64,000 bases of DNA from a bacterium (lineage in GTDB: Bacteria; Patescibacteriota; Microgenomatia; UBA1400; UBA12108): positions 28,284 through 92,283 of the forward strand of contig JAJYKS010000004.1 in NCBI GenBank assembly GCA_021788365.1. Reading direction: 5' to 3'. Positions 4,900 through 52,888 of this stretch are shown one piece after another (position 1 is the first letter of the stretch; every line of letters begins with the position of its first letter). Below the pieces are notes generated by a model, which was not told the origin of the DNA, did not search any database, and saw only the letters and a list, made by a program, of their open reading frames with translations. The position numbers and the translations under genes are program-made.

Positions 4900-5625
4900 A
4901 TGACATTCTTAATACTCGCCAACTTCAAGTCTCACAAACTCGCCTCCGAGGCGAAAAAATGGCTCGAAATTGTCTCAGCTCACCCATTCTTGAGTGAAGT
5001 TGAAGTATCGGTAGCACCAAGTCACATACATCTCGAACTGTTTTCCGACAAACTAGCTCACCGACAACCTGACGTACAGACTCGCCGATCCACCGATTCG
5101 CCGGATATCTCCCTTGCCGCCCAGGACGTCTCTCCCTTTCCCGTGGGTTCGTACACCGGGGCGGTAAACGCCTCGCAGCTAGTCGATCTTGATATAAAAT
5201 ATTGCCTCGTTGGTCACTCCGAGCGCCGCCGATATTTCCACGAAACTCCATCCGACGTAGCCGCTAAAGTACGCCAACTACTAGATGTAGGAATCACTCC
5301 CATAATCTGTCTGTCTACAGAGGACATTACGCCGCAATTTGCTGCACTCGACGATTCACTTCGCGCTCGCTGCCTCTTTTGTTACGAACCACCCGGAGAT
5401 ATTGGCGGCACGGAAAGCGCCGCGCCCGAGGATATAAAAAAGGTTACCGATCGCATCCACTCATACGCCCCCACTCACCCAGTGATGTATGGTGGCTCGG
5501 TCAACGAACAGAACGTTGCAGCGCTCCGCTTGCTTGGACTTGGTGGAGTACTTGTCGCAACAGCCTGTCTTGATCCAAAGCAGTTTATAGCAACAATAGA
5601 GGCATATATTCATGGAAAAGGTTAA
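4900..5625 (+). CDS. tpiA: triosephosphate isomerase
   Basis: 241 aa. 'ILANFKSH' corresponds to the N-terminal 'IAGNWKMN' motif, 'CLVGHSERR' is the TIM signature, and 'VMYGGSVN' is the C-terminal phosphate-binding loop. Confidence 0.8.
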   Translation: MTFLILANFKSHKLASEAKKWLEIVSAHPFLSEVEVSVAPSHIHLELFSDKLAHRQPDVQTRRSTDSPDISLAAQDVSPFPVGSYTGAVNASQLVDLDIKYCLVGHSERRRYFHETPSDVAAKVRQLLDVGITPIICLSTEDITPQFAALDDSLRARCLFCYEPPGDIGGTESAAPEDIKKVTDRIHSYAPTHPVMYGGSVNEQNVAALRLLGLGGVLVATACLDPKQFIATIEAYIHGKG

Positions 5626-6616
5626 GGGACTGCTGCATCATCCATGGCTACTTACCATGGTTGGTATACTCGTGGTGGGGCTAGCGGCGCTTGGTGTATG
5701 GTACGCCAAGAACCGCACCGCACAAAAAATCGTCACTGGTATAGTTGCGAGACCAGAAGAGACAATAAAAAGTGATGGCGGTCGTACCAACATACTACTT
5801 CTTGGCATTGGCGGCGCCGGCCACGAAGGTCCCGATTTAACCGACAGTATGATCCTTGTTTCCATAAATCAGACAACGCATAAAGTTTCCATGATCTCGA
5901 TTCCTCGGGATATATGGGTTACGTCTATGCAGGCAAAAATCAACACGGCTTACTATTACGGGTCTCAAAAAAATGGGGTAACGGGTGGTCTTAATCTCGA
6001 AAAATCGGTGGTGACTGAAGTGACCGGTTTGCCGGTACACTACGTGGTTATGATTGATTTCAATGGTTTTGTAAAGGCAATCGATGCAGTCGGTGGTCTC
6101 GACATTACCGTCGATCGCACGTTCGACGACTACATGTATCCAATACCCGGGAAAGAAAATGCCGAGCCAGAGAGTGCACGCTACGAGCATATCCATTTTG
6201 ACGCGGGTCCAGCACACATGGATGGCACAACAGCCTTAAAATTCGCCCGATCTCGCCACGCAGAAGGAATAGAAGGAACCGATTTTGCCCGGTCAGTTCG
6301 TCAACAAAAGATACTTGTCGCTTTCAAGAACAAACTACTATCAGGTGCGACATTGTTCAACTTCAATACACTACAAAAAGTAGAAAATAGCTTCCTAGGC
6401 TCGATCACTACCGACATCGATGCAGGGCAGTATGGCAGCTTCTTTAAGTTGTTTCTAGCGTTCGAGCAAAGCGGGCAAGTGGTTCAGCCAATAAACATCG
6501 ACGATCTATTAACAAACCCGACAAATACAACTCCCTATCAAGGACAATGGGTATTAATTCCGGTCAAAGATTGGGCAGCGGTACACGACTATGTGGCAAA
6601 AAATCTTTCGCAATGA
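5612..6616 (+). CDS. LCP-family (LytR-CpsA-Psr) cell-envelope polymer transferase
   Basis: N-terminal TM anchor, then 'NILLLGIGGAGHEGPDLTDSMILVSIN...KVSMISIPRDIWV', the LCP core, and a later 'ALKFARSRH' block. Confidence 0.75.
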   Translation: MEKVKGLLHHPWLLTMVGILVVGLAALGVWYAKNRTAQKIVTGIVARPEETIKSDGGRTNILLLGIGGAGHEGPDLTDSMILVSINQTTHKVSMISIPRDIWVTSMQAKINTAYYYGSQKNGVTGGLNLEKSVVTEVTGLPVHYVVMIDFNGFVKAIDAVGGLDITVDRTFDDYMYPIPGKENAEPESARYEHIHFDAGPAHMDGTTALKFARSRHAEGIEGTDFARSVRQQKILVAFKNKLLSGATLFNFNTLQKVENSFLGSITTDIDAGQYGSFFKLFLAFEQSGQVVQPINIDDLLTNPTNTTPYQGQWVLIPVKDWAAVHDYVAKNLSQ

Positions 6617-9041
6617 AAAAAAAGGTCTGACCTTTACGTGGTTGTGGATAGTCGTCTGGCTCCTCGCCATAGCCATCCGTCTATACGGTGCGACCACTCC
6701 AGCCCAGTACTATGATATGGGCACATTCCATTCGTGGGCGATAACAATGGATCGTGTAGGCCCAACTCATTTTTTTAGTTCCACTTGGTCCGACTACATG
6801 CCGCTTCCGCTGTACACGCTCGTTCCTGTTCTGTGGATTTCAACTGCCGCGCATCTTTCATTTGATCTCGTATTTAAACTTATGATGTCCACAATTGAGC
6901 TTACGCTCATTTACTTTATTGCTCGGTCGCTAAAGCACATCACACGATACAAGGGCATCATTGTACTTCTCTTGCTTTCCCCGGTTTTGATTGGCAATAC
7001 AGCTTTCTGGGGTCAAGTAGATACGATCCCGGCACTCATGACTTTACTTTCCCTCCTGCTCATCACACCCGGTGTGAAAAAAGCGACCTCACACACAGGG
7101 TGTGTGATATTCTCCGCCACTCTTTTCGGTCTTTCTGTGGCCTACAAGCCCATCATGCTCGTCGCGCTACCGGTATTTCTAGTGATTATGCTCCGTCGGT
7201 CGTTTTTTCCGTCCATCCTTTATTTCCTAACATCTTTAGCTGCATTTTTGGTGACGGCAATGCCCATGAACGGATCGGGTAATCCCGCTACCGCGTTCAT
7301 ATTGTTGTTCTCTCGCGCCTTGTCTCAATCGGGAACATATCCGTACACAACCATAAACGCGTGGAATCTGTGGTCGGTAATTCCCCATCCCTCGTCATGG
7401 CCACCGGACAATCAAATAGTGCTTGGATTATCCGCGCACACGTTTGGTCTCATACTGTTCTCGCTTGCAGCTGTGTACACCTTGCTTGGATGGAGGAAAG
7501 CGAAATGGGATCGAAAATACGTCTTCCGTATCGTGGCAACGCTCCTCATTGCTTTTTATACCTTTACCACCCGCATGCACGAGCGTCATCTGTTGTTCGG
7601 CATTCCCGCGCTTGCAATTGCTGTGGCCTTTGACACGTGGCTCATTATTCCGTACACGATCTTGACAATTACCTATTCCATAAATCTCTGGGCAGCATTT
7701 TATTGGGTAAATAACAGCCAGACCTGGCCGGTTGCTCCGTGGGTTATGGGGGCGGTATCGTGGGTAAACGTACTGACGACGTTCGCCATGGTAATGATTT
7801 GGGATTGGCCCAAATACACGCAAAAAATCCGACTATGGTTATCTCGTAATAAGATGCTATTCCTCGTACTCTGTCTTGCAAGCTTTTTACGTATCTACAA
7901 CCTGTCCTATCCCAAAGTGTATATTTTCGACGAAGTGTACCATGCCTTTACAGCACGGCAATATCTACACAACAATAAGGCCGCATGGGAGTGGTGGACG
8001 ACACCGCCGAAGGGTGTGGCATACGAGTGGACACATCCACCAGTCGCAAAATATGGCATGGTTGCCGGCATGCTTCTATTTGGAGAGAATAGCTTTGGCT
8101 GGCGTATTGGTTCTGCCATAGCTGGAGTCTTAAGTGTTCTTGGCCTCTATAAATTAGTGCTAACACTAACAAAGAACCGGAGAGCGGCGCTTCTCTCAGC
8201 CTTCTTTGTTTCAATAGAGGGACTACACCTTTCACAATCACGAATTGGCATGAACGACATGTATATGCTTGTATTCTACGTGTGGTCGCTGTACCTAGCG
8301 GTAAAATCGCGGTGGAAATGGAGTGCAATCCTCTTTGGTCTCTCACTCGCGTCAAAATGGTCCGCGCTATACGGTATTATTCCCCTGGGTATCGTGTATC
8401 TCCACGAGAAGTGGTCACTCCTCCGGGCTCCCATTAACATCCTCCGCGCAATACTTCACACCCTACGGTTGCTGCTTATCGTAATAATTATCTATATCCT
8501 TGCCTTTACCCCATTTTTTGTAATTGGTCACACTTGGGGACAGTGGTGGGAACTGCAGCGGCAGATGTGGTACTACCACACCCACCTGAAAGCCACGCAC
8601 GCGTACCAATCAATACCGCTACAGTGGATATTCGACATTCGTCCAGTATGGTATTACGTAGACTATGGCAAAAGCGTGATCAGCAACATCTACGCGCAGG
8701 GCAATCCTCTTGTCCTCTGGTTGGGCCTCGTTTCTTTTGTCATGCTACTGCCAAAAATACGAAAATATCCATACCTACTTCTTAGCGCCAGCTACCTTAT
8801 TTTTACCGTTCCCTGGGCGTTCTCCCCGCGCATTATGTTTTTCTATCACTACCTCCCGAGCGCTTTTTTTCTCTGTAGTCTTCTCGCGCTGTGGCTGTCA
8901 GAGATACCCAGAAAAGTATGGATAGCGTGTATCGCACTTTGTGTTGTGTGCTTTATATTTTTGATTCCGGTGTACTACGGCACGCCCATGCCCCACTGGT
9001 ACTGGAACTCGCTGTTCTCGATTATGCCATCCTGGAAATAG
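6591..9041 (+). CDS. large polytopic membrane glycosyltransferase; the C-terminal half is PMT/GT39-like (dolichyl-phosphate-mannose protein mannosyltransferase family), the N-terminal half is a second multi-TM domain
   Basis: 816 aa with more than 20 predicted TM helices. The PMT loop-1 signature 'YIFDEVYHAFTARQYL' sits at about residue 430, so the PMT-like domain is in the second half. The true start is uncertain: the first 30 nt overlap the LCP gene end and a palindromic repeat (6622-6634), and an in-frame TTG is at 6642. Confidence 0.55.
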   Translation: MWQKIFRNEKKGLTFTWLWIVVWLLAIAIRLYGATTPAQYYDMGTFHSWAITMDRVGPTHFFSSTWSDYMPLPLYTLVPVLWISTAAHLSFDLVFKLMMSTIELTLIYFIARSLKHITRYKGIIVLLLLSPVLIGNTAFWGQVDTIPALMTLLSLLLITPGVKKATSHTGCVIFSATLFGLSVAYKPIMLVALPVFLVIMLRRSFFPSILYFLTSLAAFLVTAMPMNGSGNPATAFILLFSRALSQSGTYPYTTINAWNLWSVIPHPSSWPPDNQIVLGLSAHTFGLILFSLAAVYTLLGWRKAKWDRKYVFRIVATLLIAFYTFTTRMHERHLLFGIPALAIAVAFDTWLIIPYTILTITYSINLWAAFYWVNNSQTWPVAPWVMGAVSWVNVLTTFAMVMIWDWPKYTQKIRLWLSRNKMLFLVLCLASFLRIYNLSYPKVYIFDEVYHAFTARQYLHNNKAAWEWWTTPPKGVAYEWTHPPVAKYGMVAGMLLFGENSFGWRIGSAIAGVLSVLGLYKLVLTLTKNRRAALLSAFFVSIEGLHLSQSRIGMNDMYMLVFYVWSLYLAVKSRWKWSAILFGLSLASKWSALYGIIPLGIVYLHEKWSLLRAPINILRAILHTLRLLLIVIIIYILAFTPFFVIGHTWGQWWELQRQMWYYHTHLKATHAYQSIPLQWIFDIRPVWYYVDYGKSVISNIYAQGNPLVLWLGLVSFVMLLPKIRKYPYLLLSASYLIFTVPWAFSPRIMFFYHYLPSAFFLCSLLALWLSEIPRKVWIACIALCVVCFIFLIPVYYGTPMPHWYWNSLFSIMPSWK

Positions 9042-9089: not shown

Positions 9090-9139
9090 AAGGTCTGACT
9101 TGTATGGAAGTGCCCAACCCGAAGGGCAGGTCAGACCTT
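9090..9139. repeat. palindromic repeat element / bidirectional terminator-like nested hairpin between convergent genes
   Basis: AAGGTCTGAC-ttgtatggaagtGCCCaacccgaaGGGCag-GTCAGACCTT: outer 10-bp arms and an inner 4-bp stem. Related copies are at 6622-6634, 49372-49448 and 52817-52857. Confidence 0.6.
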
Positions 9140-9154
9140 ATTGGTTCTATGTAA

Positions 9155-10006
9155 TTAGAGCAATAGCAGTCCCAGTGCTCCCACGAGAAGGAGGAGGACA
9201 CCAGCACCCATCGTACCAGCCGTCACCTCAAACACACCGGCAGTGGGGAGTGCCGAGGGAGCAGAGGATGGTGGCAAGCTAACCTGTCCGGTTGCGGTAA
9301 TAGAAACACTGCAGGAACTTGTTTGACCATTGGTAGAAGCAACAGTCGCGGTATTGGCAACCGACTGCGTTCCAGCCGCAGTAACTTTCACACGAATAGA
9401 CCGGGAAGCTTGCGAGCCGCCGGCGAGAGCACCGATGGTACAAGTGACAATACGCGAAGCAGAATCATACGTGCAGCCATTATCAGCATCCATAAAGGTG
9501 AGGTTGGTAGACAGGGGATCGGTAATAGTAGTGTCAGATGCCGCAGTACCACCGCTATTGCCAGCAACGATGTTATAAACAATCGCCTGACCACTTTGGA
9601 TGGTAGAAGTATCGGTGATTTCGTTATTGAGGAAGTAGAACCCAGCAGTGTTGCGGGAGTCATCCTGATACATGCGTTTCACAACACAAGTGAGATTGGC
9701 ACCGGTCGTTGTGGAGGGTGATGGTGAAGGGGATTCCGACGGCGAGGATGAGGGCGACGACGAAGGGGGTACAGAAGCAGTGACAGTAAAAGAAAGCGAG
9801 CAGGTAGCGGGGTTCACCTGCAGAACCGGTGCAGTAGTGGGTGTCGGGAGTGGTGTGGGAGTTGGTGTTGATGTAGGTGGCTGTACAACAGGTCGCCGTA
9901 CCAGGAAAACAACGAGGACAGCGGCGACAATGGTGCCAAATACACCGAGGCCTATGAGAAGCGTCTTTTTAGCGTTAGTCGTCATGGCGTTGTTGCTCCT
10001 TGCCAA
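9155..10006 (-). CDS. cell-surface protein with a DUF11 'conserved repeat domain', a Pro/Thr/Ser linker and a C-terminal LPTAG plus hydrophobic tail
   Basis: It has an N-terminal signal/anchor 'KKTLLIGLGVFGTIVAAVLVVFLV' and a PTPTP/SPS linker. 'IVYNIVAGNSGGTAASDTTITDPLSTNLTFMDADNG...IVTCTIGALAGGSQASRSIRVKV' matches the DUF11/TIGR01451 pattern. The C-terminus is 'LPTAGVFEVTAGTMGAGVLLLLVGALGLLLL'. Confidence 0.5.
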   Translation of the reverse strand: MARSNNAMTTNAKKTLLIGLGVFGTIVAAVLVVFLVRRPVVQPPTSTPTPTPLPTPTTAPVLQVNPATCSLSFTVTASVPPSSSPSSSPSESPSPSPSTTTGANLTCVVKRMYQDDSRNTAGFYFLNNEITDTSTIQSGQAIVYNIVAGNSGGTAASDTTITDPLSTNLTFMDADNGCTYDSASRIVTCTIGALAGGSQASRSIRVKVTAAGTQSVANTATVASTNGQTSSCSVSITATGQVSLPPSSAPSALPTAGVFEVTAGTMGAGVLLLLVGALGLLLL

Positions 10007-11703
10007 TTAGGGTCACAGGTCTTCGTGCCGTTAATGGTTGCACAGGCCTGACACTCCACAGAATAGGTGCCGGCCTTGGCAACGGTAAGCTCTGCGGTTG
10101 TGGCGGTTTTGTTGGTGAGCGTTGTCCAGGAGCCAGTGTCTATGCTATAGCGAAAGTTATATGAGATAGTTGCTACGTCGGCGGGTGTTGTGGCTCCTGC
10201 ACACGTAAGGGTGAGCGTCTTGCCGATGGTTATATCAGCATCGGCCGTATTCTTGGTGAGGCTACTGCAGGCGAGGGTGGGGGTAGAGCTATTGGTCGTG
10301 GTAGTGGTGGTAGTTTTGGTTGTATTGGTAACGCACCCCACACCTTGCACGCCCGTCGTCCCCGCCGCACACGTTGTCCAGTGAGGAATATTGCAGTCGA
10401 CAGGACCGCTTTCGGGGCCGCTACCGCCGTTATATCCATCACTCCCGTTGTTCGTCCGACTCGGCATGTCGTTACACCCAATGCCACCGGGCACAAACGT
10501 AAAACCCTTGGCTATCATCGCAGCAATTTCTTCGGGAGTTTGAGTTGGCATGGTTGCAACGATACTAGGTGCAACGGCTCCAGGTTGCGAATTAGTTATA
10601 TTATGGGTTGTTGCATTGTAGAGTGCAGCAGCATTTGCCGTATCAGGGTTCTGCACAAGATAGCGTTTCCCATTCGATATATAAGTCCCAGCAATATTAG
10701 CCGTTGAACTATTCCAATCACTCTGGCTAGCAGGTTGACCAGTATCGTAGTTATATCCAAACCCTCCAGCCACGTTCGACGTTGCTATACCCGTTCCGCT
10801 ATACGTACTAGAGGTATTTCCGCTGGTATTACCCTGACTTCCACTACCAGAAGTAGATCCCCCAGAGGTATTTACATTAGTAGTTCCACCACCACGAGTA
10901 GGGACAGTATGGGTGCCCACCGTTCCACCAGTATTGTTGTTAACAATAGTACCGCCCACCGCTCTGAATGCACCATCAATGAGCACCACAGCGATAGATC
11001 CTGTTTTTGCCTGCGAATAGTAGTAAAGGCCTCCAACGCCGACAAGCCCCACCATAAAGAAGAGCACTCCAACTATTGTCAGGAGTACTTTCTTTCCTTT
11101 CCCCTTTTTCTTTCCCTTTTGACTCCCCACAAGCGGAGAAGGAGGGACTGGTGGAGTAGAGGAAGCAGCTAGAGGTGGCTCCGGTGGAAACGCAGGAGAC
11201 GATACAGTGAGGGTGGTCGTACTCGTCGGTGTGGCAAAAGCCAAAGGTGGCTCCTCGGTTGCGGGTAGAGCTGGTGTCGGTTGCGGGGTTGGAGGTGTAT
11301 TCGGAGTCATAGCGTCAGACACAGTAGGCGACTGTTCGGAAGGTATCTCGGCGACAGTTGGGGAAGTTAGTGGTTGTGTGGGAGAAAGTGGAGTTGCCGG
11401 CTCCGCAGGGGTAGGATCCACAATTGGCTTAGGCTCTTCGGGAGCTGATAGCGGTGCTGGCTCCGAGGGAGCACCGACAAGCTCAGGAGGAACAGTCTCA
11501 GGAGTGGGTTGTGGTGCAGGAGATAGTTCCGGCGGGATCGCCTCCACGGGTGTCGGGTCAGAAGTTGGTGACGAGGGTGTTTGTGGTACCGAAAGCACTT
11601 CGTCTACAACTTTTTGTGGATCAGGAAGTACCGGTAAACCGTTGGGTGCCACTGGTGTCTGTTGAGTATCATCTGTCATAAGTCCACCATAACTAGAGCG
11701 CAA
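9982..11703 (-). CDS. hypothetical single-pass membrane protein with a proline-rich N-terminal region and a Gly/Thr/Cys-rich C-terminal ectodomain
   Basis: 573 aa. About 200 aa of Pro-rich low-complexity sequence precede a Lys-rich stretch and one TM ('VLLTIVGVLFFMVGLVGVGGLYYY'). The ectodomain carries conserved Cys pairs and a poly-Thr run. The gene overlaps its upstream and downstream neighbours, so it sits in an operon. Confidence 0.4.
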   Translation of the reverse strand: MRSSYGGLMTDDTQQTPVAPNGLPVLPDPQKVVDEVLSVPQTPSSPTSDPTPVEAIPPELSPAPQPTPETVPPELVGAPSEPAPLSAPEEPKPIVDPTPAEPATPLSPTQPLTSPTVAEIPSEQSPTVSDAMTPNTPPTPQPTPALPATEEPPLAFATPTSTTTLTVSSPAFPPEPPLAASSTPPVPPSPLVGSQKGKKKGKGKKVLLTIVGVLFFMVGLVGVGGLYYYSQAKTGSIAVVLIDGAFRAVGGTIVNNNTGGTVGTHTVPTRGGGTTNVNTSGGSTSGSGSQGNTSGNTSSTYSGTGIATSNVAGGFGYNYDTGQPASQSDWNSSTANIAGTYISNGKRYLVQNPDTANAAALYNATTHNITNSQPGAVAPSIVATMPTQTPEEIAAMIAKGFTFVPGGIGCNDMPSRTNNGSDGYNGGSGPESGPVDCNIPHWTTCAAGTTGVQGVGCVTNTTKTTTTTTTNSSTPTLACSSLTKNTADADITIGKTLTLTCAGATTPADVATISYNFRYSIDTGSWTTLTNKTATTAELTVAKAGTYSVECQACATINGTKTCDPNWQGATTP

Positions 11704-13063
11704 GTAGAAAAGCGCCTGCTACCATAATCGCAAACCCTATGGCACCAGTCAATACAGTGGGTTCGACAATCCCCGTGACCGGCACCCCGCTGCCCGTTGC
11801 GGGCATCGCGACGCGACCTCCGGCAGTTGACTCGACAATGGGGCTACCCACGGGAGTAGGAGACGGATAAATGGCCGTTGTACTCGCCGACGGGGTCGAT
11901 ACAAATGCTGGGTCACCCGCCGCCGCCTCGACTTTCGACACGGTAAATGTCCGTTCCAAAGTCTGAGCAACTCCCTGTGCGTCAATATAATTGATGGTAA
12001 CCGTATGCGAGCCAGGCGCAAGATTTGCCGGTGGTGTCCACGTCCACGTACCGTTATTCGCGACAGTAACAGTGCCACTATATGGCGTCACCGAGTGTAC
12101 CGTAATAGAAAGTACCGCAGCCGAAGGGCCAGTACCGCGGAACTCCGGTTGGGTCGTTGCAATGGTTTCCCCATCGCTCGCCGGGTTAGAAAGGGTGACA
12201 CTCCCGGCACTCGGAGGTGTGGACCCCAAAGGTTGTACGTTAAATATCCCAGGTACTTGCCCAGAACTCGTCGAAGCAGGCGTAGCAGACGGAGTTGCCG
12301 GCTCCACAACAGCTACATTGGGAATAGCAGCGGCCGCGCGAAAATCGGGATTCTGCCCCATGGTGATGACGGGGACTGGCGTCGAGTTGGCAAGCGAAAC
12401 AGTAGCGGTAGACGTTTGACTACCAGTCTCGACGGTGACAGTAGCAATGGTAGCAGAAGGATCAAACGCCACGTAAGAAGAAAGATCAGTCGTACGAATA
12501 GTTGAGAGTGGTATGGTATATGAACCAGGTGCGTGAACGAGTACTGAAGCAACTTGCGCGTTGGGGAGAGCAAGATAAACGAGCGCGTCTCCAACGCTCC
12601 CTCCGCCAGGGTTCTGGACAGTCCCGTAAAAACTTTTTGCCAAAGGAGTAGTGGTAATAGTGGGACCGGTTGTAACGGTATAGGGAGAGCCGTTATTGTC
12701 GTACGTTGCAGAATTAGACGTAATACGAAAAGCATATTGAGTACTCGGCTGCAAACCAGTCACGGTTACTTGATGAGTGGTATATGAGTCTGGAGCGGTA
12801 GCCGAATCGCGCTCGTCGGCAACTTTTGTAGACAACGCATCTCCTACTTTACCCCACACCACGCTACCGGTCGCCTTTCCAGACGTTATCCACGACACAG
12901 AAAATTTATTATCTGCAGTATTACTTATTCGTACTTTCTGTGGAATAAATTCTGGGTTCACGGCAGACCGCTCTGAACGCAAAAACCACACCCCTCCGGC
13001 AATGCCCGCAAAGAGAAGCACCAACCCCAGCAAAGTAGGAAACCGTTGGGTGAGCAGGTTCAT
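11693..13063 (-). CDS. cell-surface protein with an FN3-like N-terminal domain, Ser/Thr-rich repeats, an Ig-like domain and a C-terminal MPATG plus hydrophobic tail
   Basis: 456 aa with an N-terminal signal anchor. 'KFSVSWITSGKATGSVVWGK...YTTHQVTVTGLQPSTQYAFRITS' is FN3-like. 'GTVTVANNGTWTWTPPANLAPGSHTVTINYIDAQG' is bacterial Ig-like. The C-terminus is '...AMPATGSGVPVTGIVEPTVLTGAIGFAIMVAGAFLLAL'. Confidence 0.45.
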   Translation of the reverse strand: MNLLTQRFPTLLGLVLLFAGIAGGVWFLRSERSAVNPEFIPQKVRISNTADNKFSVSWITSGKATGSVVWGKVGDALSTKVADERDSATAPDSYTTHQVTVTGLQPSTQYAFRITSNSATYDNNGSPYTVTTGPTITTTPLAKSFYGTVQNPGGGSVGDALVYLALPNAQVASVLVHAPGSYTIPLSTIRTTDLSSYVAFDPSATIATVTVETGSQTSTATVSLANSTPVPVITMGQNPDFRAAAAIPNVAVVEPATPSATPASTSSGQVPGIFNVQPLGSTPPSAGSVTLSNPASDGETIATTQPEFRGTGPSAAVLSITVHSVTPYSGTVTVANNGTWTWTPPANLAPGSHTVTINYIDAQGVAQTLERTFTVSKVEAAAGDPAFVSTPSASTTAIYPSPTPVGSPIVESTAGGRVAMPATGSGVPVTGIVEPTVLTGAIGFAIMVAGAFLLAL

Positions 13064-13091
13064 CTTATTTTCATAGTAGCACGTCTAGTAG

Positions 13092-13430
13092 TTATGGTGT
13101 AGGGCTCGGAGCCGAACTCGCCGAGGTGGTTGCAATTTGTGCCTGCACAATAGGCGATGGTGGGGGGGTTGCGCTACTCGTAGCCACAAGTGACTGTACG
13201 ATCGTCGCCGCACTCTGTGACAGTTGGGTACGCGCCGAGAGTGATGCCACAGTCGCCTGGTCTATCGTGGGGCTCACGGGGGAAAGGGTAGACGCATCGA
13301 CACCAATAGGAGCCGGTGTTGAGAGTGCACGGTACACGGAAATGGCAACCCAAAGAAATACAACAAAGAGCGTAATAAGAGCTATCTGATAATAATTACG
13401 GCTAATAAGAATAGTACTATGCTTGCTCAT
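13092..13430 (-). CDS. small membrane-anchored Ser/Thr/Pro-rich protein in the pil operon
   Basis: 112 aa with one TM ('IALITLFVVFLWVAISVY') and a low-complexity tail. It overlaps the upstream PilO-like gene by 4 nt (ATGA). Confidence 0.35.
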   Translation of the reverse strand: MSKHSTILISRNYYQIALITLFVVFLWVAISVYRALSTPAPIGVDASTLSPVSPTIDQATVASLSARTQLSQSAATIVQSLVATSSATPPPSPIVQAQIATTSASSAPSPTP

Positions 13431-14125
13431 TTTGATGTCGCTCCCTTATCGCTAGGTAGTGATGTGGTTATTTGTTTTTGATCTGCCATATATGACACAG
13501 TACCAGAAATGGAAAGAGTAACAGTTGCGGTCGAGTCCTTAGTAATAGCTTGGTGAGAGAAAGTAACAGAGGTGATGGTTACTATTCGGTCAAGTGACAG
13601 GAGTGATGTGAGAAACGTAGAGGTTTGTCCGTACGACCCAGCCACTTGAATAGTGACCGGCATAGACACAACGGACTCGGTCTTAGCAAGGGTAAAAGGT
13701 GAAACAATCTGGGAAAAAAGAAGTGTTTCACCGATATTGTCGTTAACGAGAGTCGCCCCACTTTGCGCTGCAAGGATTTCGATTGAACTGGTAAATGGGA
13801 TATACCCAGCATCCGTCGTTGGTATGCTGGCATCTATATAGGAGAGCGAAGGCTTGAGAGCGGTGAGTATGGTTGCCGCGCGCTGTAGCGAGGAGACTTT
13901 TGCGTCAAGTTGCTGCAGAGTTTGCCGCGAATCTTGGATGTCTTTTTGGAGTGAAATAATGGTTGTCAAAGTAGGGCGCAGCGCGAAGAATATAAAGAAA
14001 GCAATAATAAACATCGATAAAACCACCTGTAGCGATATTTGCACCGCAGGTAACCGGTAATAACGTCGCAAATCCAAGTCGTAATGGCGGGCTCTAACTT
14101 GGGAATATTTTGTGGCAGGGCTCAT
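13427..14125 (-). CDS. pilO: type IV pilus assembly protein PilO-like
   Basis: 232 aa. A short cytoplasmic N-terminus and a single TM are followed by a coiled-coil ('LQKDIQDSRQTLQQLDAKVSSLQRA') and a beta-rich periplasmic domain. It lies immediately downstream of PilN with a 4-nt overlap. Confidence 0.45.
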   Translation of the reverse strand: MSPATKYSQVRARHYDLDLRRYYRLPAVQISLQVVLSMFIIAFFIFFALRPTLTTIISLQKDIQDSRQTLQQLDAKVSSLQRAATILTALKPSLSYIDASIPTTDAGYIPFTSSIEILAAQSGATLVNDNIGETLLFSQIVSPFTLAKTESVVSMPVTIQVAGSYGQTSTFLTSLLSLDRIVTITSVTFSHQAITKDSTATVTLSISGTVSYMADQKQITTSLPSDKGATSK

Positions 14126-14712
14126 GTCGTTTTTTGCGCTCCAAGAGTCAAAGTAACATCAAATTGCATCTGCGCATCCTTTGCCCCACCATCCTGAATC
14201 TGGCTAATGGTAACCGCGGTAAAAAATGGGGTGTGTTGAAGTGTCGTGAGAAACTGCCCAAAACTACCAAGGGAAGACGCATAAGCGGTAAAGCTGAGCG
14301 TTTTTGGAGTGATGGTTATGTGGTCATACCATATTCCCGCAGGCGTTGCTTGGGTGAGGAGGGTAAAAGCCCGTGAGATGGTAGTCTGATCTACAAGTGC
14401 TGTTTTAGCAAAAGATATACGCTTCTGAGCTAGGATGAAATCGCGCTCTATTTGGTTATATGAGCCAATAATAGCAACATCCTTGGCAACCGCAGTGCGT
14501 AGATCGGTCATCTGCCGGTCAAGCGCAAAGCGCCACAAAAATGCAAACATGACAATGAGCTGAGTCAAAATAACCGCCCACTTACCAAACGCCAGAGCCC
14601 ACTCGAGGACTATGCCAACAGTACTGGACTCGAACGCATCACGTGGAAGTAGATTGATCGACCTCTTATGGCCGAAAAAAGCGGGCAGCTGCATGTCTAC
14701 CAGTATAAACAA
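14122..14712 (-). CDS. pilN: type IV pilus assembly protein PilN
   Basis: 196 aa. The N-terminal 'INLLP' (PilM-binding motif) is followed by one TM ('AVILTQLIVMFAFLW'), a coiled-coil and a ferredoxin-like periplasmic domain, which is the canonical PilN architecture. Confidence 0.6.
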   Translation of the reverse strand: MFILVDMQLPAFFGHKRSINLLPRDAFESSTVGIVLEWALAFGKWAVILTQLIVMFAFLWRFALDRQMTDLRTAVAKDVAIIGSYNQIERDFILAQKRISFAKTALVDQTTISRAFTLLTQATPAGIWYDHITITPKTLSFTAYASSLGSFGQFLTTLQHTPFFTAVTISQIQDGGAKDAQMQFDVTLTLGAQKTT

Positions 14713-14743
14713 ATTTAGGAAAAGTAGGAAGCGGAGTTAAAGA

Positions 14744-15007
14744 TTATTTCGCAAATGGACTAGTCGTGAGCTTCGCACGTGAACCCTTGACGAGGCGCGA
14801 CTTCATACGAGCTGCTGCTCGTGGGGAAACAAGATGTTTTTTAACAGCACGATCAATAGCGGCATAGAAAGCAGAAATAGCCGTAGAGGACGGTGTGGTA
14901 CGTGCAGCCTTGAGCGTGCTCTTCACGCGCCCGGATACGGGGACGTTAGAGGCTGCTCGTCGACGATCGACTCGCTGCTTTTTAATTGCTGATTTCAGAA
15001 GTGGCAT
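14744..15007 (-). CDS. rpsT: 30S ribosomal protein S20
   Basis: The ORF-track entry 14744..15202 is N-terminally over-extended. Starting from the internal Met, 'MPLLKSAIKKQRVDRRRAASNVPVSGRVKSTLKAARTT...AAIDRAVKKHLVSPRAAARMKSRLVKGSRAKL' matches S20 over about 87 aa. Confidence 0.75.
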   Translation of the reverse strand: MPLLKSAIKKQRVDRRRAASNVPVSGRVKSTLKAARTTPSSTAISAFYAAIDRAVKKHLVSPRAAARMKSRLVKGSRAKLTTSPFAK

Positions 15008-15065
15008 GGTGCGTAGTATACCGTACCCCCTGTTCACTGTCCACTGTTCAGGGTAAACTAGTGCC

Positions 15066-16730
15066 ATGTTTGAGCGACTTATGCGTGGCGGCCGAGAGCT
15101 TGTATCAAAAGAAAACTCTTCGATCCTATCCGCAGCTTTCATCATTATGGGTGCCACGTTTCTCTCTGCAATCCTCGGGTTTATCCGTACTCGTCTCCTC
15201 ATTCAATACTTTTTCGGGAACAAGGCAGTGCTCGATGCCTTCTGGGCAGCTTTCCGTATTCCGGACACCATCTTTCAACTCTTGATTGTAGGAGCCCTCT
15301 CCTCGGCTTTTATTCCCATTTTCAGTAAGTACCTGGAAAAAGGGAGGGAAGAAGAGGCAAGTACCATTGCCGCGTCCATGATCAATGTTGTTGTGGGGGT
15401 AATGGTGCTCCTAAGCGTTGGTATTGTCGTATGGGCAGAGCCGCTGTCCCATCTCATTGCTGGTGGTTTTCCAGAGGGACAAATTAAGATAATGGTAAGC
15501 CTTACTCGGGTTATGGCCGTTGCCGACGTACTCTTTGGCTTCTCGTCATTTCTAACAGGAATTATCCAGTCTCACAAGCGCTTCATAGTACCCGCACTCG
15601 CCCCCTCACTCTACAACGTCGGCATTATCCTAGGCACAATATTTTTAAGCAAACCACTTGGCATCATGGGCCCAGCGATAGGCGTCATCGTAGGAGCGCT
15701 GCTCCATCTCGCCGTACAACTCCCCCTCGCTCGCATGCTAGGCTTCCGCTACCGCCCTATTGTGGCACGACATCCGGCGATATCCGAAATGGGGCGACTC
15801 ATGCTCCCTCGCGTCCTAACGCTCTCACTCGCGCAAATCGAGCAAACAGTCGTTATTGCGTTCTCCTCATGGCTTTCGCTGGGGACAGTCACGGTCATGT
15901 CTATCGCTCAACAGCTGGCAAATCTACCAATTCGCATGATAGGCATCACCATAGGTCAAGCCTCACTACCGTTTTTTGCAAAAGAAATGGCACGCGGTAA
16001 CAAAGCGGGACTGGCAGAAATGGTTAACAATGCCATTCTACAAATGCTATACCTGGCACTTCCCGCCTCGGCCATAGTCCTCATATTAAGAATTCCGCTC
16101 GTGCGCTTAGCGTATGGTGCCGGCTCCTTCCCCTGGGCCGATACAGTGACTACGGGTCGGGTTGTTGCCATGCTGGCGCTCGCGATAGCCGCAGGCTCCC
16201 TGACGAATATCGTCATCCGCGTCTTCTATGCCCTGCACGACACCAAGACACCATTTGTAATAAACCTTGTAGCAACCTCCATTAACGTTAGCCTAAGTTA
16301 CTACCTGCTCTTCATAATAAAAACCGGCGTTATAGGCATGGCGTTCGCCATGACCCTTGCTGACACAGTCGAGAGCGTTATCCTCACCATCGTACTCTAC
16401 AACGTCGCCTCGTTCTCACTGAAGAAACTAGGCGTGCCATTTCTAAAAATGCTTCTTGCCTCGGCAGTGACCGCGGTCATGTTGTGGTTGCCAATGCGTC
16501 TTCTCGATCAGTTCATTTTTGACACTACACACACCTTCCCCTTGCTCGTATTAACAGTTATGGTCACGGGCATTGGCTTGGCTGTATACATCATGTTGTC
16601 GTACCTCCTCCACATCCGCGAGCTTGAAGTATTTGTGACACTCCTCAAGAAATTAGGTGACTGGCGCAAATCACTCGTTGCTTCCCCCGAAGCCTTGGAG
16701 CCGGTAGATTCAACCGACCTCTCGGCGTAA
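15066..16730 (+). CDS. murJ: lipid II flippase MurJ (MviN family)
   Basis: 554 aa and 14-TM. 'FRIPDTIFQLLIVGALSSAFIPIFS' and the overall MOP-flippase pattern are typical of MurJ. Confidence 0.8.
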   Translation: MFERLMRGGRELVSKENSSILSAAFIIMGATFLSAILGFIRTRLLIQYFFGNKAVLDAFWAAFRIPDTIFQLLIVGALSSAFIPIFSKYLEKGREEEASTIAASMINVVVGVMVLLSVGIVVWAEPLSHLIAGGFPEGQIKIMVSLTRVMAVADVLFGFSSFLTGIIQSHKRFIVPALAPSLYNVGIILGTIFLSKPLGIMGPAIGVIVGALLHLAVQLPLARMLGFRYRPIVARHPAISEMGRLMLPRVLTLSLAQIEQTVVIAFSSWLSLGTVTVMSIAQQLANLPIRMIGITIGQASLPFFAKEMARGNKAGLAEMVNNAILQMLYLALPASAIVLILRIPLVRLAYGAGSFPWADTVTTGRVVAMLALAIAAGSLTNIVIRVFYALHDTKTPFVINLVATSINVSLSYYLLFIIKTGVIGMAFAMTLADTVESVILTIVLYNVASFSLKKLGVPFLKMLLASAVTAVMLWLPMRLLDQFIFDTTHTFPLLVLTVMVTGIGLAVYIMLSYLLHIRELEVFVTLLKKLGDWRKSLVASPEALEPVDSTDLSA

Positions 16731-16749
16731 CCGGTATAATATCTCGACA

Positions 16750-18615
16750 ATGGATAACATTCGCAATTTTTCGATAATCGCCCACATCGATCACGGCAAG
16801 ACAACCTTGACCGATCGTCTCTTGGAGGCAACCGGCACCGTGGAAAAGGGGGGAGAGGAGCGTTTGATGGACAGTAATCCCATAGAGCGGGAGCGCGGCA
16901 TCACCATCAAACTTGCCCCGGTACGGATGCTGTATCAGAAAAATACAAATAAAACTCCACAACTGAAAATTAAAAATAATGACTTGAAAAATGCAGATTC
17001 AGAACAGTATGTTCTGAATCTGATTGACACTCCCGGCCATGTCGACTTTGCCTACGAAGTGAGCCGCGCGCTCCACGCCTGTGAAGGTGCGGTTTTGGTT
17101 GTAGATGCAACTAAAGGTGTTCAGGCTCAGACTATAGCCAATCTCGATCACGCGCGGGCAGAGGGACTTGTCGTGATTCCAGTCATCAACAAAGTTGACC
17201 TTCCCGCCGCCGAGCCTGAGCGAGTGGCAAAAGAGCTAGTCGCCCTCGGGTTTGTAAAAGAAGAAATCTTGTCTGTTTCCGCAAAGACTGGTCTCGGAGT
17301 TCCTGAGCTCCTCGAAGCGATTGTTACTCGCATCCCGGCTCCTACCCCCATCACACCCGGCGCGAAGGGCGCCCACACACCGGGTGTCTCAGAACCGCTT
17401 CGTGCCTTTATCTTCAACTCCACTTTTGATCCTCACCAGGGGGTTATCGCCTTTGTAAAAGTGGTTTCCGGCACGCTAACTCGCCGCAACCTTCACAACC
17501 TCTTTCTCTGGGAGACCAAGGAGAAGCTCTCTGCTCTCGATCTTGGCGTCTTTACACCAAAGATGACTTCTATCGATTCATTGGGAGAGGGGATGGTGGG
17601 ATACGTGGCAACCGGCGCCAAAGACATTCACGACGTGACGGTCGGTGACACGGTAACGACAGTGGGAGAAACAATAACACCCATCCCGGGATATGCCCGC
17701 CCGCAACCCATGGTTTTTATGGATGTCTATCCCGTCGACGCGGACAACTATCGTGATCTGGCAGACGCGCTAGGCAAGCTAGCCTTGAATGACGCCGCCT
17801 TGACCGTTCGGCCCGCCGCATCCCCTGCCTTGGGTCACGGCTTCCGTGTGGGTTTCCTCGGTATTCTCCATGCCGAAATCGTGGTCGAGCGCCTATCGCG
17901 CGAGTTCGGAGTAGAAGTGGTAAATACCTCTCCCTCAGTACCGTACCACGTGACGACTCGTGACGGTAATCTCTTGGAGATCTCCTCTCCCGCCGACCTT
18001 CCTTCGCCAGAGACAATTACGGAAATAGAAGAACCTGTAGTCGCTCTCACCATCTTTACGCCAGAAAAATTCGTAGGCGGTATCATGGACTTGACCGTCA
18101 AAAAGCGCGCCACCTTTGTTGATATGCAATATGTCGCCGATCGGGTAAAACTTTCATATCTCATGCCACTCATTGAGATGATCACTAATTTTTATGATTC
18201 CTTAAAGTCAGTTTCTTCTGGTTATGCCTCAGTACAGTACGACCATGCCGGCTACGAGCCGGTGGATGCAGTAAAAGTAGATATTCTTCTCAATAACACT
18301 CCGGCCGACGCCTTGTCCTTTATTTCCCCACGCGAGTTTGCCGAGTCTCGCGCCCGCGCGATCGCGCTAAAACTCAAGGAAACTATTCCTCGCATGCAAT
18401 TCGAGATTCCCATCCAGGCTGTAATTGGCGGAAAGATCATCGCTCGCGAGACCGTCAAGGCATTTAGAAAAGATGTAGAAGCCAAGCTGCACGGCGGCGA
18501 CATGTCACGGAACCGCAAACTCCTAGAAAAACAAAAGAAGGGTAAGAAGCGCATGAAACAGTTCGGCACAGTCGCCGTCCCTCAAGAGGCATTCACCGCC
18601 ATTCTGAAAATCTAA
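16750..18615 (+). CDS. lepA: elongation factor 4 (LepA)
   Basis: 'NFSIIAHIDHGKTTLTDRLLE' is the G1 motif and 'DTPGHVDF' is G3. The LepA-specific C-terminal domain is present. A roughly 14-aa Lys/Asn-rich insertion sits between the G1 and G3 regions. Confidence 0.9.
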   Translation: MDNIRNFSIIAHIDHGKTTLTDRLLEATGTVEKGGEERLMDSNPIERERGITIKLAPVRMLYQKNTNKTPQLKIKNNDLKNADSEQYVLNLIDTPGHVDFAYEVSRALHACEGAVLVVDATKGVQAQTIANLDHARAEGLVVIPVINKVDLPAAEPERVAKELVALGFVKEEILSVSAKTGLGVPELLEAIVTRIPAPTPITPGAKGAHTPGVSEPLRAFIFNSTFDPHQGVIAFVKVVSGTLTRRNLHNLFLWETKEKLSALDLGVFTPKMTSIDSLGEGMVGYVATGAKDIHDVTVGDTVTTVGETITPIPGYARPQPMVFMDVYPVDADNYRDLADALGKLALNDAALTVRPAASPALGHGFRVGFLGILHAEIVVERLSREFGVEVVNTSPSVPYHVTTRDGNLLEISSPADLPSPETITEIEEPVVALTIFTPEKFVGGIMDLTVKKRATFVDMQYVADRVKLSYLMPLIEMITNFYDSLKSVSSGYASVQYDHAGYEPVDAVKVDILLNNTPADALSFISPREFAESRARAIALKLKETIPRMQFEIPIQAVIGGKIIARETVKAFRKDVEAKLHGGDMSRNRKLLEKQKKGKKRMKQFGTVAVPQEAFTAILKI

Positions 18616-18692
18616 AGTTCAGCTCCCATTCAGCAGTATCCTCGATACTTCGATATACGTATACCAAGCAAGCTAAAGTTGGAGGGTTTTGT

Positions 18693-19193
18693 ATGAACAA
18701 AAATATAGTTATGGTGGTTATTGGTATTCTCGCACTTGCAGTCGTTGTCGAGACGGGCTATATCGTCAAAACCAAACTAGGGAGTGACGAACGCGCCGAG
18801 TCGGCCGCCGCTACGCGCGAGCTAGCTGCAAGTCCTCGTGTTGCAGGCACGCATACGGCGCCGCCCCAACTCATGAAAGGCGACAAGCTCGCCGACAGCC
18901 CGCTCGCCAAATCCGCATACGAGGTATATCCCACCATGGATACCTCAGATGCAGCCAAAGCGGCACTCGTCAGCTGGACGGTCACCACCGCCAAAAACGC
19001 GGATGGCACAACCTCGGTCACGTTAACATCAAAAAATCCCGCCGATCCGGCAAGCACCTACAAAGTGAAAACGGGAGAGAAACTCTATTTTGTGGAGATG
19101 AGCGCCGGCGACGATCACGCCGATTCAGACACAGACCTCAACCTCCGCGATGACTTCGGTATAGTAGTTGATGCTTCCGGCATAGTGCAATAA
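18693..19193 (+). CDS. hypothetical membrane-anchored protein
   Basis: 166 aa with an N-terminal TM ('IVMVVIGILALAVVVETGYIV') and a soluble Ala/Thr/Asp-rich domain. It is preceded by a purine-rich, weakly SD-like stretch (aagttggagggtttt) 4 nt upstream of the ATG. Confidence 0.4.
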   Translation: MNKNIVMVVIGILALAVVVETGYIVKTKLGSDERAESAAATRELAASPRVAGTHTAPPQLMKGDKLADSPLAKSAYEVYPTMDTSDAAKAALVSWTVTTAKNADGTTSVTLTSKNPADPASTYKVKTGEKLYFVEMSAGDDHADSDTDLNLRDDFGIVVDASGIVQ

Positions 19194-22562: not shown

Positions 22563-23132
22563 ATGAGCGCAGAATCAATAAATCTAAAAGATTGGATCGA
22601 AGAACTCGTTCACATTCAAAACGATGTCTATTTCCTATCGATAAATAATAAAGATTTTATTACCCTTTCAGAGGAATTTAATAGCAAAAGGCTGAATCCA
22701 TTTGTATGGGAATTTATAAAACGTAATTACGTGACTTCAATGTCAGTGGCTATTAGGAGATTAATGGACAATCGTAAAGATTGCCACAGCCTGCTAAAAC
22801 TACTATCAAACATAGAAAGACGTTCATCGGACATAAATACAAAATGGTTTCTCGAACAATGGCCTGGCGGATCAGTGGAAACAAAGTTTAAAGAGTTTTT
22901 CGGTAATAATAATCACGTAAAAAAGCAAGTCATACAAAATCATATTGAAGAGTTAAAACGAGTTACAAGGGCAATTTGTGAGAGAACCAACATTTATGAA
23001 GCGCACAATGCAAAGAAAAAGGATCTAAAAATAATACCCACATACAGAGATGTTGATGTCGCAGTTGACACAATCAAAGTAGTATATGCCAAATACTGGT
23101 ATCTTCTGAAACAAGGGGATCTTTCGATTTAA
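22563..23132 (+). CDS. hypothetical protein in a strongly AT-rich island segment
   Basis: 189 aa, Lys/Asn/Ile-rich. The DNA is visibly AT-richer than the flanks. No recognisable catalytic motif. Confidence 0.4.
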   Translation: MSAESINLKDWIEELVHIQNDVYFLSINNKDFITLSEEFNSKRLNPFVWEFIKRNYVTSMSVAIRRLMDNRKDCHSLLKLLSNIERRSSDINTKWFLEQWPGGSVETKFKEFFGNNNHVKKQVIQNHIEELKRVTRAICERTNIYEAHNAKKKDLKIIPTYRDVDVAVDTIKVVYAKYWYLLKQGDLSI

Positions 23133-52802: not shown

Positions 52803-52816
52803 TTTGAAATTTGAGA

Positions 52817-52857
52817 ATGGAAGTGCCCAATCCTCCCAGGGAGAAGCAGGTCAGACC
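52817..52857. repeat. partial copy of the palindromic repeat family immediately after the alaS stop
   Basis: It shares ATGGAAGTGCCCAA and GCAGGTCAGACC with the 9090-9139 copy, but the left outer arm is missing. Confidence 0.45.
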
Positions 52858-52888
52858 CTATGGGTACTCTGTGCTATGCTCTATTTGT

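Follow-up and report, generated by a model that had tools for sequence, protein, structure and literature searches.

Why would the genes for PilN and PilO, two membrane proteins of the type IV pilus machine, be found away from other pilus genes and followed directly by genes for surface proteins? This question is raised by a 64,000-nucleotide stretch of contig JAJYKS010000004.1 (assembly GCA_021788365.1, positions 28,284 to 92,283), referred to here as the window, from a member of the Microgenomates group of the Candidate Phyla Radiation (CPR)/Patescibacteria. On the minus strand of the window, from position 15007 to 9155, seven consecutive open reading frames (ORFs) encode rpsT, PilN, PilO and four proteins designated p112, p456, p565 and p276 after their lengths in amino acids (aa). 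A preliminary description, made from the sequence alone, had read the locus as an rpsT-led operon and as a possible type IV pilus-linked adhesin module. The four ORFs of 112, 456, 573 and 283 aa that it saw trailing pilN-pilO in tight succession are all present, the last two being given here in their shorter forms. Type IV pili are thought to be central to host binding and DNA uptake in the CPR/Patescibacteria, and the unit formed by PilN, PilO, p112 and p456 supplies concrete candidates for the extracytoplasmic pilus components of an envelope without outer membrane and secretin.

A conserved four-gene core

The module is a deeply conserved envelope unit of the Microgenomates (CPR/Patescibacteria), consisting of an invariant PilN-PilO-p112-p456 core and surface proteins that vary between clades. 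A genome scan seeded with a three-sequence PilN alignment gave 72 genome loci with PilN identities of 25-64%, in which ORFs were labelled by phmmer and by iterated hidden Markov models (HMMs) built on the window proteins. The PilN relatives in the genome collection are all from Microgenomates-group CPR/Patescibacteria (Woesebacteria, Collierbacteria, Pacebacteria and 'Microgenomates group'), the best having 64% identity. The gene order PilN>PilO>p112>p456 was found in all loci with enough sequence (about 70 Microgenomates), even at 25-30% PilN identity, and LepA, MurJ and rpsT likewise accompany the four genes in every such locus. The reverse test, starting from p456, gave the same picture: PilO, with PilN and p112, lies directly upstream in 39/39 metagenome loci, these being the loci with at least 1.2 kb of upstream sequence, and PilO is upstream of p456 in loci L085 and L086 too. 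Conservation among relatives, which the preliminary description had named as a check on its operon, is thus borne out for the four-gene core, in the roughly 70 genomes and from the p456 side alike.

The core genes are also tightly spaced. In the window both the PilN/PilO and the PilO/p112 junctions are 4-nt overlaps, and the remaining junctions vary with the choice of start codon, between an overlap of 25 nt and a gap of 28 nt. Across the loci the median gap from PilN to PilO is -1 nt (4-nt overlap in 29/70), from PilO to p112 -4 nt (4-nt overlap in 32/69) and from p112 to p456 6.5 nt (4-nt overlap in 5/68). Spacing of this kind is typical for translationally coupled genes.

The flanks of the core occur in two arrangements. 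In one, that of the Woesebacteria/Collierbacteria-like loci, MurJ is divergent and rpsT is ahead of pilN. In the other, arrangement B, that of the Pacebacteria-like loci, MurJ is on the same strand directly ahead of pilN and rpsT is on the other strand. The lipid II flippase MurJ (15066-16730, plus strand; TIGR01695, 5.5e-86), which is divergent from the module in the window, adjoins the module in essentially all loci, with its orientation inverted between the clades. The core stays whole while these flanks change: MurJ flips, and in arrangement B glycan genes replace the downstream genes. An operon led by rpsT, as first described, is therefore not a general feature, one clade of relatives having rpsT on the other strand and MurJ preceding pilN. 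Because it is on the opposite strand in the Pacebacteria-like loci, we regard rpsT (ribosomal protein S20; 14744-15007, minus strand, 87 aa; Pfam S20 8.7e-9, above the curated cut-off; TIGR00029 5.8e-11) as a conserved neighbour and not as an obligatory operon member. The MurJ-inverted relatives that were compared with window positions 14694-16730 are L034-L049, L052, L055, L057, L076, L082 and L121-L134. As regards names, dozens of contigs of Microgenomates metagenome-assembled genomes (L013, L015-L020, L026, L028, L033-L039 and others) are titled 'uncultured Pseudomonadales bacterium', a label artefact; 'Candidatus Paceibacterota' is a phylum-level name.

PilN and PilO are homologous to pilus proteins

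The identification of PilN by its INLLP N-terminus is upheld by profile searches against both Pfam and solved structures. PilN (14122-14694, minus strand; 190 aa, or 196 aa if the TTG at 14712 is the start) matches Pfam PF05137 at 4.2e-9 (36.8 bits vs a cut-off of 22.8), the match being to the C-terminal PilN domain, and the profile of its subfamily matches Myxococcus xanthus PilN in structure 3jc8 at 2.5e-9. The N-terminus is MQLPAFFGHKRSINLLPRD (...KRSINLLPRD), with INLLP at residues 13-17, and the INLLP stretch (...HKRSINLLPRDAFE...) is followed by a single membrane helix at about residues 34-52, as indicated by hydropathy. An exhaustive search shows that the homologues form a distinct subfamily of about 180-200 aa, with 723 cluster representatives at E<1e-3, of which 370 also pass E<1e-10. 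In the subfamily consensus, INLLPKDxF...W..GRYIVI.TE.IVI.AFLSRF.LDR.LTDL, INLLP is conserved throughout and is among the best-kept parts.

PilO (13427-14125, minus strand; 232 aa) is encoded directly after pilN and has a membrane helix at about residues 30-48, a coiled coil and a PilO domain. It matches Pfam PF04350 at 1e-9 (39.1 bits vs a cut-off of 22), and its profile matches the PilO of 3jc8 at 9e-10 and Pseudomonas aeruginosa PilO (2rjz/5uvr) at 1e-5. A word-index search for PilO homologues gave three close relatives only. The preliminary description had recognized a PilO-like gene with a 4-nt pilN overlap, and both the overlap and the relationship to PilO are confirmed. With the DUF11 match of p276 described below, all three profile searches that it had proposed (PF05137, PF04350 and DUF11) are above the curated cut-offs.

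Conserved partners of PilN and PilO

The gene that follows PilO encodes p112 (13092-13430, minus strand; 112 aa), a small bitopic membrane protein with a membrane helix at residues 14-32, a short conserved ectodomain motif (kPL.p.ID..v..L..R) and a tail rich in Ser, Thr, Ala and Pro. It has no match to a Pfam or NCBIfam family and no lipobox. With an iterated HMM, a p112 homologue was found directly after PilO in 69/72 PilN loci and nowhere else.

The last gene of the core encodes the conserved stalk protein p456 (11693-13063, minus strand; 456 aa). It has Pfam matches above the curated cut-offs to fn3/Pur_ac_phosph_N (8.7e-11) and Big_13 (2.8e-10). At least 244 full-length homologues of about 440-475 aa were found, named in their sources as hypothetical, FN3-domain or Ig-like proteins. 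An AlphaFold2 model made with a 46-sequence alignment (mean predicted local distance difference test score, pLDDT, 81) has a helix at each terminus and three β-sandwiches. From the N-terminus these are a membrane helix (residues 2-30), an FN3 domain (42-131), a second β-sandwich (144-241; CarboxypepD_reg-like in an orthologue), a disordered linker (about 245-290), a Big_13 Ig domain (295-375), a second disordered linker (383-433) and a C-terminal hydrophobic helix (435-455). This last helix is part of a putative sortase-type signal, with MPATGSGVPVTG between the second linker and the helix. A Foldseek search of the model against the PDB gave only generic tandem FN3/Ig proteins, such as contactins, the MpIBP and SiiE adhesin extenders, and macroglobulins.

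Mean column identity, taken over 62 orthologues of p456, is highest in the N-terminal segment and the FN3 domain (0.60 in each) and lowest in the linkers. A [KR][KR][IF]PT motif directly before the N-terminal helix (window 13030-13063, minus strand; residues 1-12) is present in 61/62 orthologues (loci L013-L137), which places it among the best-kept short features of p456. It may serve for docking in the cytoplasm or be an unusual element of a signal peptide. Since there is no obvious signal-peptidase site, the N-terminal helix may stay as an anchor. By eye, the N-terminus was also compared with a Tat signal, a prepilin and a lipobox, and all three were rejected (KR and not RR, no G-F-T-L-x-E, no Cys). 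At the C-terminus, 49/62 orthologues have [LMIN]PxT, mostly as MPATxSG, followed by a helix, and 25 of the 49 have a basic tail too. The window signal is MPATG...VPVTG and helix, with no basic tail; Collierbacteria orthologues have MPATSSG, helix and KKWWRD. The tail is more conserved than the linker before it, and in the window (RVAMPATGSGVPVTGIVEPT...) it aligns with the p276 tail, ALPTAGVFEVT.... Among the real ORFs of the window, only p456 and p276 have [LM]Px[TA]G with a hydrophobic tail.

An N-terminal helix retained in the membrane and a C-terminal sortase-type signal would mean that p456 may bridge membrane and wall. With its strong conservation, p456 resembles a fixed structural component held in membrane and wall more than it resembles a variable adhesin. 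A candidate processing enzyme for both p456 and p276 is encoded 40 kb from the module. This sortase (55274-56041, plus strand) matches Pfam Sortase at 1.8e-26 and TIGR01076 above the cut-off; none of the sortase class models reaches its cut-off, the best being class C with 64 bits vs a cut-off of 160. A sortase gene is absent from the module itself and from ±10 kb around it in relatives. Sortases are near-ubiquitous in Microgenomates (PMC6744442).

Variable surface proteins downstream of the core

The two genes after p456 behave differently from the core. At 78% PilN identity, p456 is 74% identical and p565 44%. p565 (9982-11679, minus strand; 565 aa, or 573 aa if the TTG at 11703 is the start) matches no Pfam or NCBIfam family. 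It begins with an LPDPQxxVDxAL-type motif that is conserved across the clade of the window. A Pro/Thr-rich segment of about 190 aa (window 11100-11679, minus strand; residues 1-195) ends in KKGKKKGKGKK and is followed by a helix at about residues 198-216 of the 565-aa form. Because KKGKKKGKGKK precedes the helix, the segment is predicted by the positive-inside rule to be cytoplasmic and thus no linker at the surface. The ectodomain is rich in Gly, Ser and Thr, and has conserved cysteines and a predicted C-terminal β-sandwich. A single-sequence AlphaFold2 model is poor (mean pLDDT 44), with a moderate-confidence β-sandwich at residues 480-555 (pLDDT about 70). The N-terminal anchors that had been ascribed to all four downstream ORFs thus do not extend to the 573-aa protein, in which the helix comes only after about 190 residues predicted to be cytoplasmic.

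The last protein, p276 (9155-9985, minus strand; 276 aa, or 283 aa if the TTG at 10006 is the start), has an N-terminal signal or anchor, Pro/Thr/Ser linkers and a DUF11/CLIPPER domain (PF01345, 1.6e-13, 51.4 bits vs a cut-off of 24.6; in the 283-aa form, residues 131-226). There is also a weak match to the isopeptide-domain model TIGR04226 (2.5e-4). The C-terminus, LPTAG with a hydrophobic helix, is LPXTG-like and has no basic tail. Recent work has characterized DUF11 as CLIPPER, which is a CnaA-like isopeptide domain in the stalks of fibrillar adhesins and pilins (PMC12617251). For the Lys-Asp-Asn isopeptide triad of CLIPPER, the Asp in 'ITDPL' and the Asn in 'VANTATV' are candidates picked by eye. 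Of the adhesin-type folds that were proposed for three of the ORFs, the FN3 and Ig folds are real, but both belong to the 456-aa protein; DUF11 is in the 283-aa protein, and the 573-aa and 112-aa proteins have no family.

Like sortase-anchored LPXTG surface proteins and CLIPPER-stalked fibrillar adhesins (PMC12617251), the proteins encoded here combine an N-terminal signal or anchor, Ser/Thr/Pro linkers, Ig-like stalks and a C-terminal motif with helix, in a genome that has a sortase. They differ in their variant motifs (LPTAG or LPEAG in the p276 type, MPATxSG in p456), and the window proteins are without a basic tail, are short with one or few domains, and are genetically coupled to PilN/PilO.

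What follows p456 depends on the clade. In the clade of the window it is a p565-type gene and a DUF11/LPxAG-type gene, then the convergent PMT, LCP and TIM genes. In Collierbacteria-like loci, analogous proteins are followed by an FAD oxidoreductase and a DUF2298 membrane protein. Genes for a sugar epimerase, a glycosyltransferase and a sugar transferase are found here in most Pacebacteria-like loci, with p565-like and LPxTG proteins being retained in the Pacebacteria-like loci L040, L051 and L052. In L015 (about 12900-19000) a tandem duplication has resulted in two p565-type and three DUF11/LPxAG-type genes, which is consistent with surface-protein diversification. In all, 41/153 ORFs downstream of p456 in relatives end in LPx[TAS]G with a helix, the commonest forms being LPETG, LPEAG and LPVAG. 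The divergence, duplication and replacement seen in the tail of the module fit proteins that are predicted to be surface-exposed and fast-evolving, and variation and duplication of this sort are frequent in adhesins. These variable genes are candidates for host-attachment proteins of uncultured Microgenomates, the epibiotic lifestyle of the preliminary description being an assumption. Of the adhesin module first proposed, the linkage to PilN/PilO stands, in about 70 genomes and 39/39 metagenome loci, and adhesin-like behaviour is confined to the last two genes and is not seen in p456.

Membrane glycosyltransferase or glycan genes always come after the surface-protein genes (window 6591-9041, plus strand; L069:15550-18759; L082:13388-19489), and the glycan set of the Pacebacteria-like loci comprises epimerase, GT2, sugar transferase and Wzy-like genes. 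In the window the gene in question encodes a PMT-family membrane glycosyltransferase (6591-9041, plus strand; precomputed Pfam PMT, PMT_2 and PMT_4TMC), which is convergent with the module and keeps its position throughout the clade. It may O-glycosylate the Ser/Thr-rich linkers of the surface proteins. Another conserved neighbour encodes an LCP (LytR-CpsA-Psr) glycopolymer transferase (5612-6616, plus strand; TIGR00350, 2e-28). In Actinomyces oris, GspA, LcpA and SrtA reportedly carry out the LCP-dependent glycosylation of a sortase substrate. Here too, LCP and PMT genes lie beside those for Ser/Thr-rich sortase-type proteins, with a different gene content and organism and a glycosylation that is putative.

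The core is detached from other pilus genes

The window matches a 123.5-kb metagenome contig, and its genes recur on a contig of up to 579 kb. Over 78 kb, comprising the window and 7 kb beyond each end, the precomputed annotation of the contig and Pfam scans found none of the PilM, PilB, PilC, PilT, PilD and pilin families among the called genes. A six-frame motif search of the window found no prepilin leader and no GspE-type Walker motif, and the 72 genome loci likewise have neither of the two within ±10 kb. There is no pilM upstream of pilN in any of about 70 loci, its place being taken by rpsT or MurJ. The absence of PilM, PilB, PilC and pilin genes that was first seen in the window thus holds over 78 kb, and the split between this platform locus and the ATPase and pilin loci is general in relatives.

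Two known systems invite comparison. Like the PilMNOPQ systems of type IVa pili (Pseudomonas, Myxococcus, Thermus), the module encodes homologous bitopic PilN and PilO in adjacent overlapping genes, its PilN has the INLLP peptide, which binds PilM in type IVa systems, and the genes that come next are for envelope-spanning partners. Unlike them, it has rpsT or MurJ upstream in place of pilM, has neither the PilP lipoprotein nor the PilQ secretin, continues with genes for a small membrane protein and for an FN3/Ig protein that bears a sortase-type signal, and is apart from all other pilus genes (over 78 kb here and ±10 kb in relatives). The pilM-N-O loci of the saccharibacterium TM7x and of Gram-positive bacteria (PMC12206443; Melville and Craig 2013 as cited in PMC6744442) are similar in that PilN and PilO occur with no outer membrane and no secretin, and TM7x belongs to the same CPR phylum as the host of the module. 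In those loci, however, M, N and O sit with pilB, pilC, pilT, pilD and pilins, whereas here N and O are detached, have no pilM, and form one unit with lineage-specific surface proteins. A limited literature search found no paper describing a detached PilN-PilO-p112-p456 unit.

A wall-tethered part of the pilus machine?

How might these observations be brought together? By inference, the module would be the wall-tethered, envelope-facing side of the type IV pilus machine in the CPR, with variable adhesin-like proteins attached, a reading that we hold to be about evenly poised between right and wrong. PilN and PilO would pair in the membrane as the heterodimer that is usual for the alignment subcomplex of type IV pili. 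Since INLLP is conserved, PilN would still bind PilM, encoded elsewhere in the genome. On the outer side of the membrane, p112 and the membrane-proximal FN3 domain of p456 would dock on the PilN/PilO ectodomains and take the place held by PilP and PilQ in outer-membrane bacteria. A sortase would join the C-terminus of p456 to peptidoglycan, fixing the pilus machine in the wall of a cell without outer membrane. The variable downstream proteins would be wall-anchored, probably O-glycosylated, and would serve attachment. The physical complex, the sortase processing, the connection with the pilus and the part in adhesion are all things that we infer, and the conserved motifs INLLP, KRIPT and MPATxSG are defined targets for examining them. 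The reading agrees with published surveys, in which type IV pilus machinery including PilM is widespread in the CPR and PilQ was not found there (PMC6744442, PMC12206443).

A further step, which is tentative and in our view rather doubtful, would make p112 and p456 the missing outer half of the type IV pilus machine in the CPR and possibly in other bacteria without outer membrane. Together with PilN and PilO they could form a ring or stalk, covalently fixed to peptidoglycan by sortase, that replaces PilP/PilQ and guides the pilus through the wall, and the KRIPT motif of p456 and the LPDPQxxVDxAL motif of p565 could be new docking peptides in the cytoplasm, analogous to INLLP.

Several observations weigh against a pilus role. 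No ATPase, platform protein, peptidase, pilin or PilM gene is within ±10 kb of any locus, so the link to the pilus is drawn only from the PilN/PilO homology and from INLLP; nor was PilM located in any of the genomes to which these loci belong. There is no PilP or GspC among the top 50 Foldseek matches of p456. The MPATxSG motif of p456 deviates from LPXTG at the fifth position and no NCBIfam anchor model matches; anchor models of the TIGR01167 type give no match at E<=1. Four Pacebacteria-like orthologues of p456 have no sorting motif, the C-terminal helix being kept. Finally, the wall-synthesis neighbourhood (MurJ, FemAB, LCP and PMT here; Ddl in L082) fits a wall-related, non-pilus role equally well.

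This last point leads to the alternative that fares best, namely co-option of the PilN/PilO-like pair. Joined by p112 and p456, the pair would then form a housekeeping membrane-to-wall complex, acting in wall growth or division or in exporting and anchoring sortase substrates, which works with MurJ and lipid II independently of any pilus. The module is never near pilus genes and MurJ is always adjacent, and the universal conservation at a single locus resembles that of a housekeeping set. The surroundings are rich in wall and glycan functions, with FemAB (1817-2827), LCP and PMT in the window, Ddl, glycosyltransferases and an O-antigen-ligase-like gene in L082, and DUF2298 in L069. The Saccharibacteria pilM-N-O genes sit inside pilus loci (PMC12206443), and PilB, PilT, PilC, PilM, PilN and PilO, which are CPR-enriched, lie near one another in many genomes of the CPR (Meheust et al., PMC6744442). 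Against this, the PilM-binding INLLP is among the best-conserved parts of the subfamily, which is hard to explain without PilM, and the homology to the true PilN and PilO of the pilus machine is significant. It also counts against co-option that we know of no non-pilus role for PilN/PilO pairs outside type II secretion systems. We therefore judge co-option to be improbable, though worth keeping in mind; were the pair no longer part of a pilus, we would know of no earlier case of PilN/PilO in wall biology.

The arrangement may instead be a matter of neighbourhood only, the four downstream ORFs being ordinary sortase-anchored or membrane surface proteins with no functional tie to pilN-pilO in a reduced genome that rearranges slowly. 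Genomes in the CPR are small, and the gene order DnaK-GrpE-HrcA-LepA-MurJ-rpsT is kept across the group; since the whole region keeps its order in this way, some of the conservation of the core is background. The last two genes of the module are variable, and neither promoters nor terminators give a conspicuous signal. Sites resembling promoters are not in excess in the region (3 found vs 5.2 expected from shuffling), and terminator-like sites are about twice as frequent as expected (10 found vs 5.3), none of them breaking the gene string internally. However, the core four are contiguous though both flanks have been rearranged. Seen from PilN as well as from p456, they occur strictly together down to 25% PilN identity; two of the junctions often have 4-nt start/stop overlaps; and the p112 family is confined to the position after PilO. 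These observations make chance neighbourhood quite unlikely as an explanation of the core.

It is very improbable that the downstream genes encode a sortase-polymerized pilus or fibril of the Gram-positive type, unrelated to type IV pili and with the CLIPPER/LPXTG protein as its subunit, for although p276 has a CnaA-like DUF11/CLIPPER domain such as occurs in pilins and fibrillar adhesins (PMC12617251), the weak TIGR04226 match (2.5e-4) and an LPXTG-like signal, and the class C model gives the genomic sortase its best score, if below the cut-off, there is no sortase beside the module, no class model is at its cut-off, the proteins are short with a single CLIPPER domain, and the conserved partners are PilN/PilO and not a pilus-specific sortase.

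Local signals and other genes of the window

Upstream of rpsT there is a sigma-70-like promoter match, TGGACA-17-TATACT (15015-15043, minus strand; 10/12 positions), which is a candidate only. For both rpsT and pilN a TATACT box ends 7-8 nt upstream of the ATG (15008-15043 and 14695-14720, minus strand), and neither gene has an obvious Shine-Dalgarno sequence. From the sequence, the position of TATACT and the lack of an evident Shine-Dalgarno suggest very short leaders or leaderless transcripts, and possibly a promoter of its own for pilN. At the other end of the module, the convergent p276 and PMT genes are 113 nt apart, and this gap has a hairpin (9090-9139, minus strand; -29.8 kcal/mol, z -1.7) that is a possible, weak terminator. 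Rfam and tRNA scans of the window found no RNA genes.

The gene upstream of the sortase gene, separated from it by 6 nt, encodes p818 (52811-55267, plus strand; 818 aa), which has no confident family. It comprises a cytoplasmic N-terminal domain of about 290 aa, an acidic linker, a membrane helix at about residues 435-453 and an ectodomain that marginally matches Baseplate_J (9.7e-5). By eye the N-terminus resembles domains of the PilM/GspL/FtsA type, and we had suspected p818 of being a hidden PilM/GspL-like protein. This found no support: neither PilM nor FtsA nor GspL was matched in Pfam, in Pfam scanning of the p818 homologues or in profile searching of solved structures. A homologue of p818 has the label 'RNase H-fold protein' in one JGI record. 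Elsewhere in the window are the gene for a 1455-aa transglutaminase-core protein (26650-31017, plus strand) and, at 22563-23132 (plus strand), the gene for an AbiU2-type HEPN protein (Pfam, 4e-7), possibly an abortive-infection defence gene.

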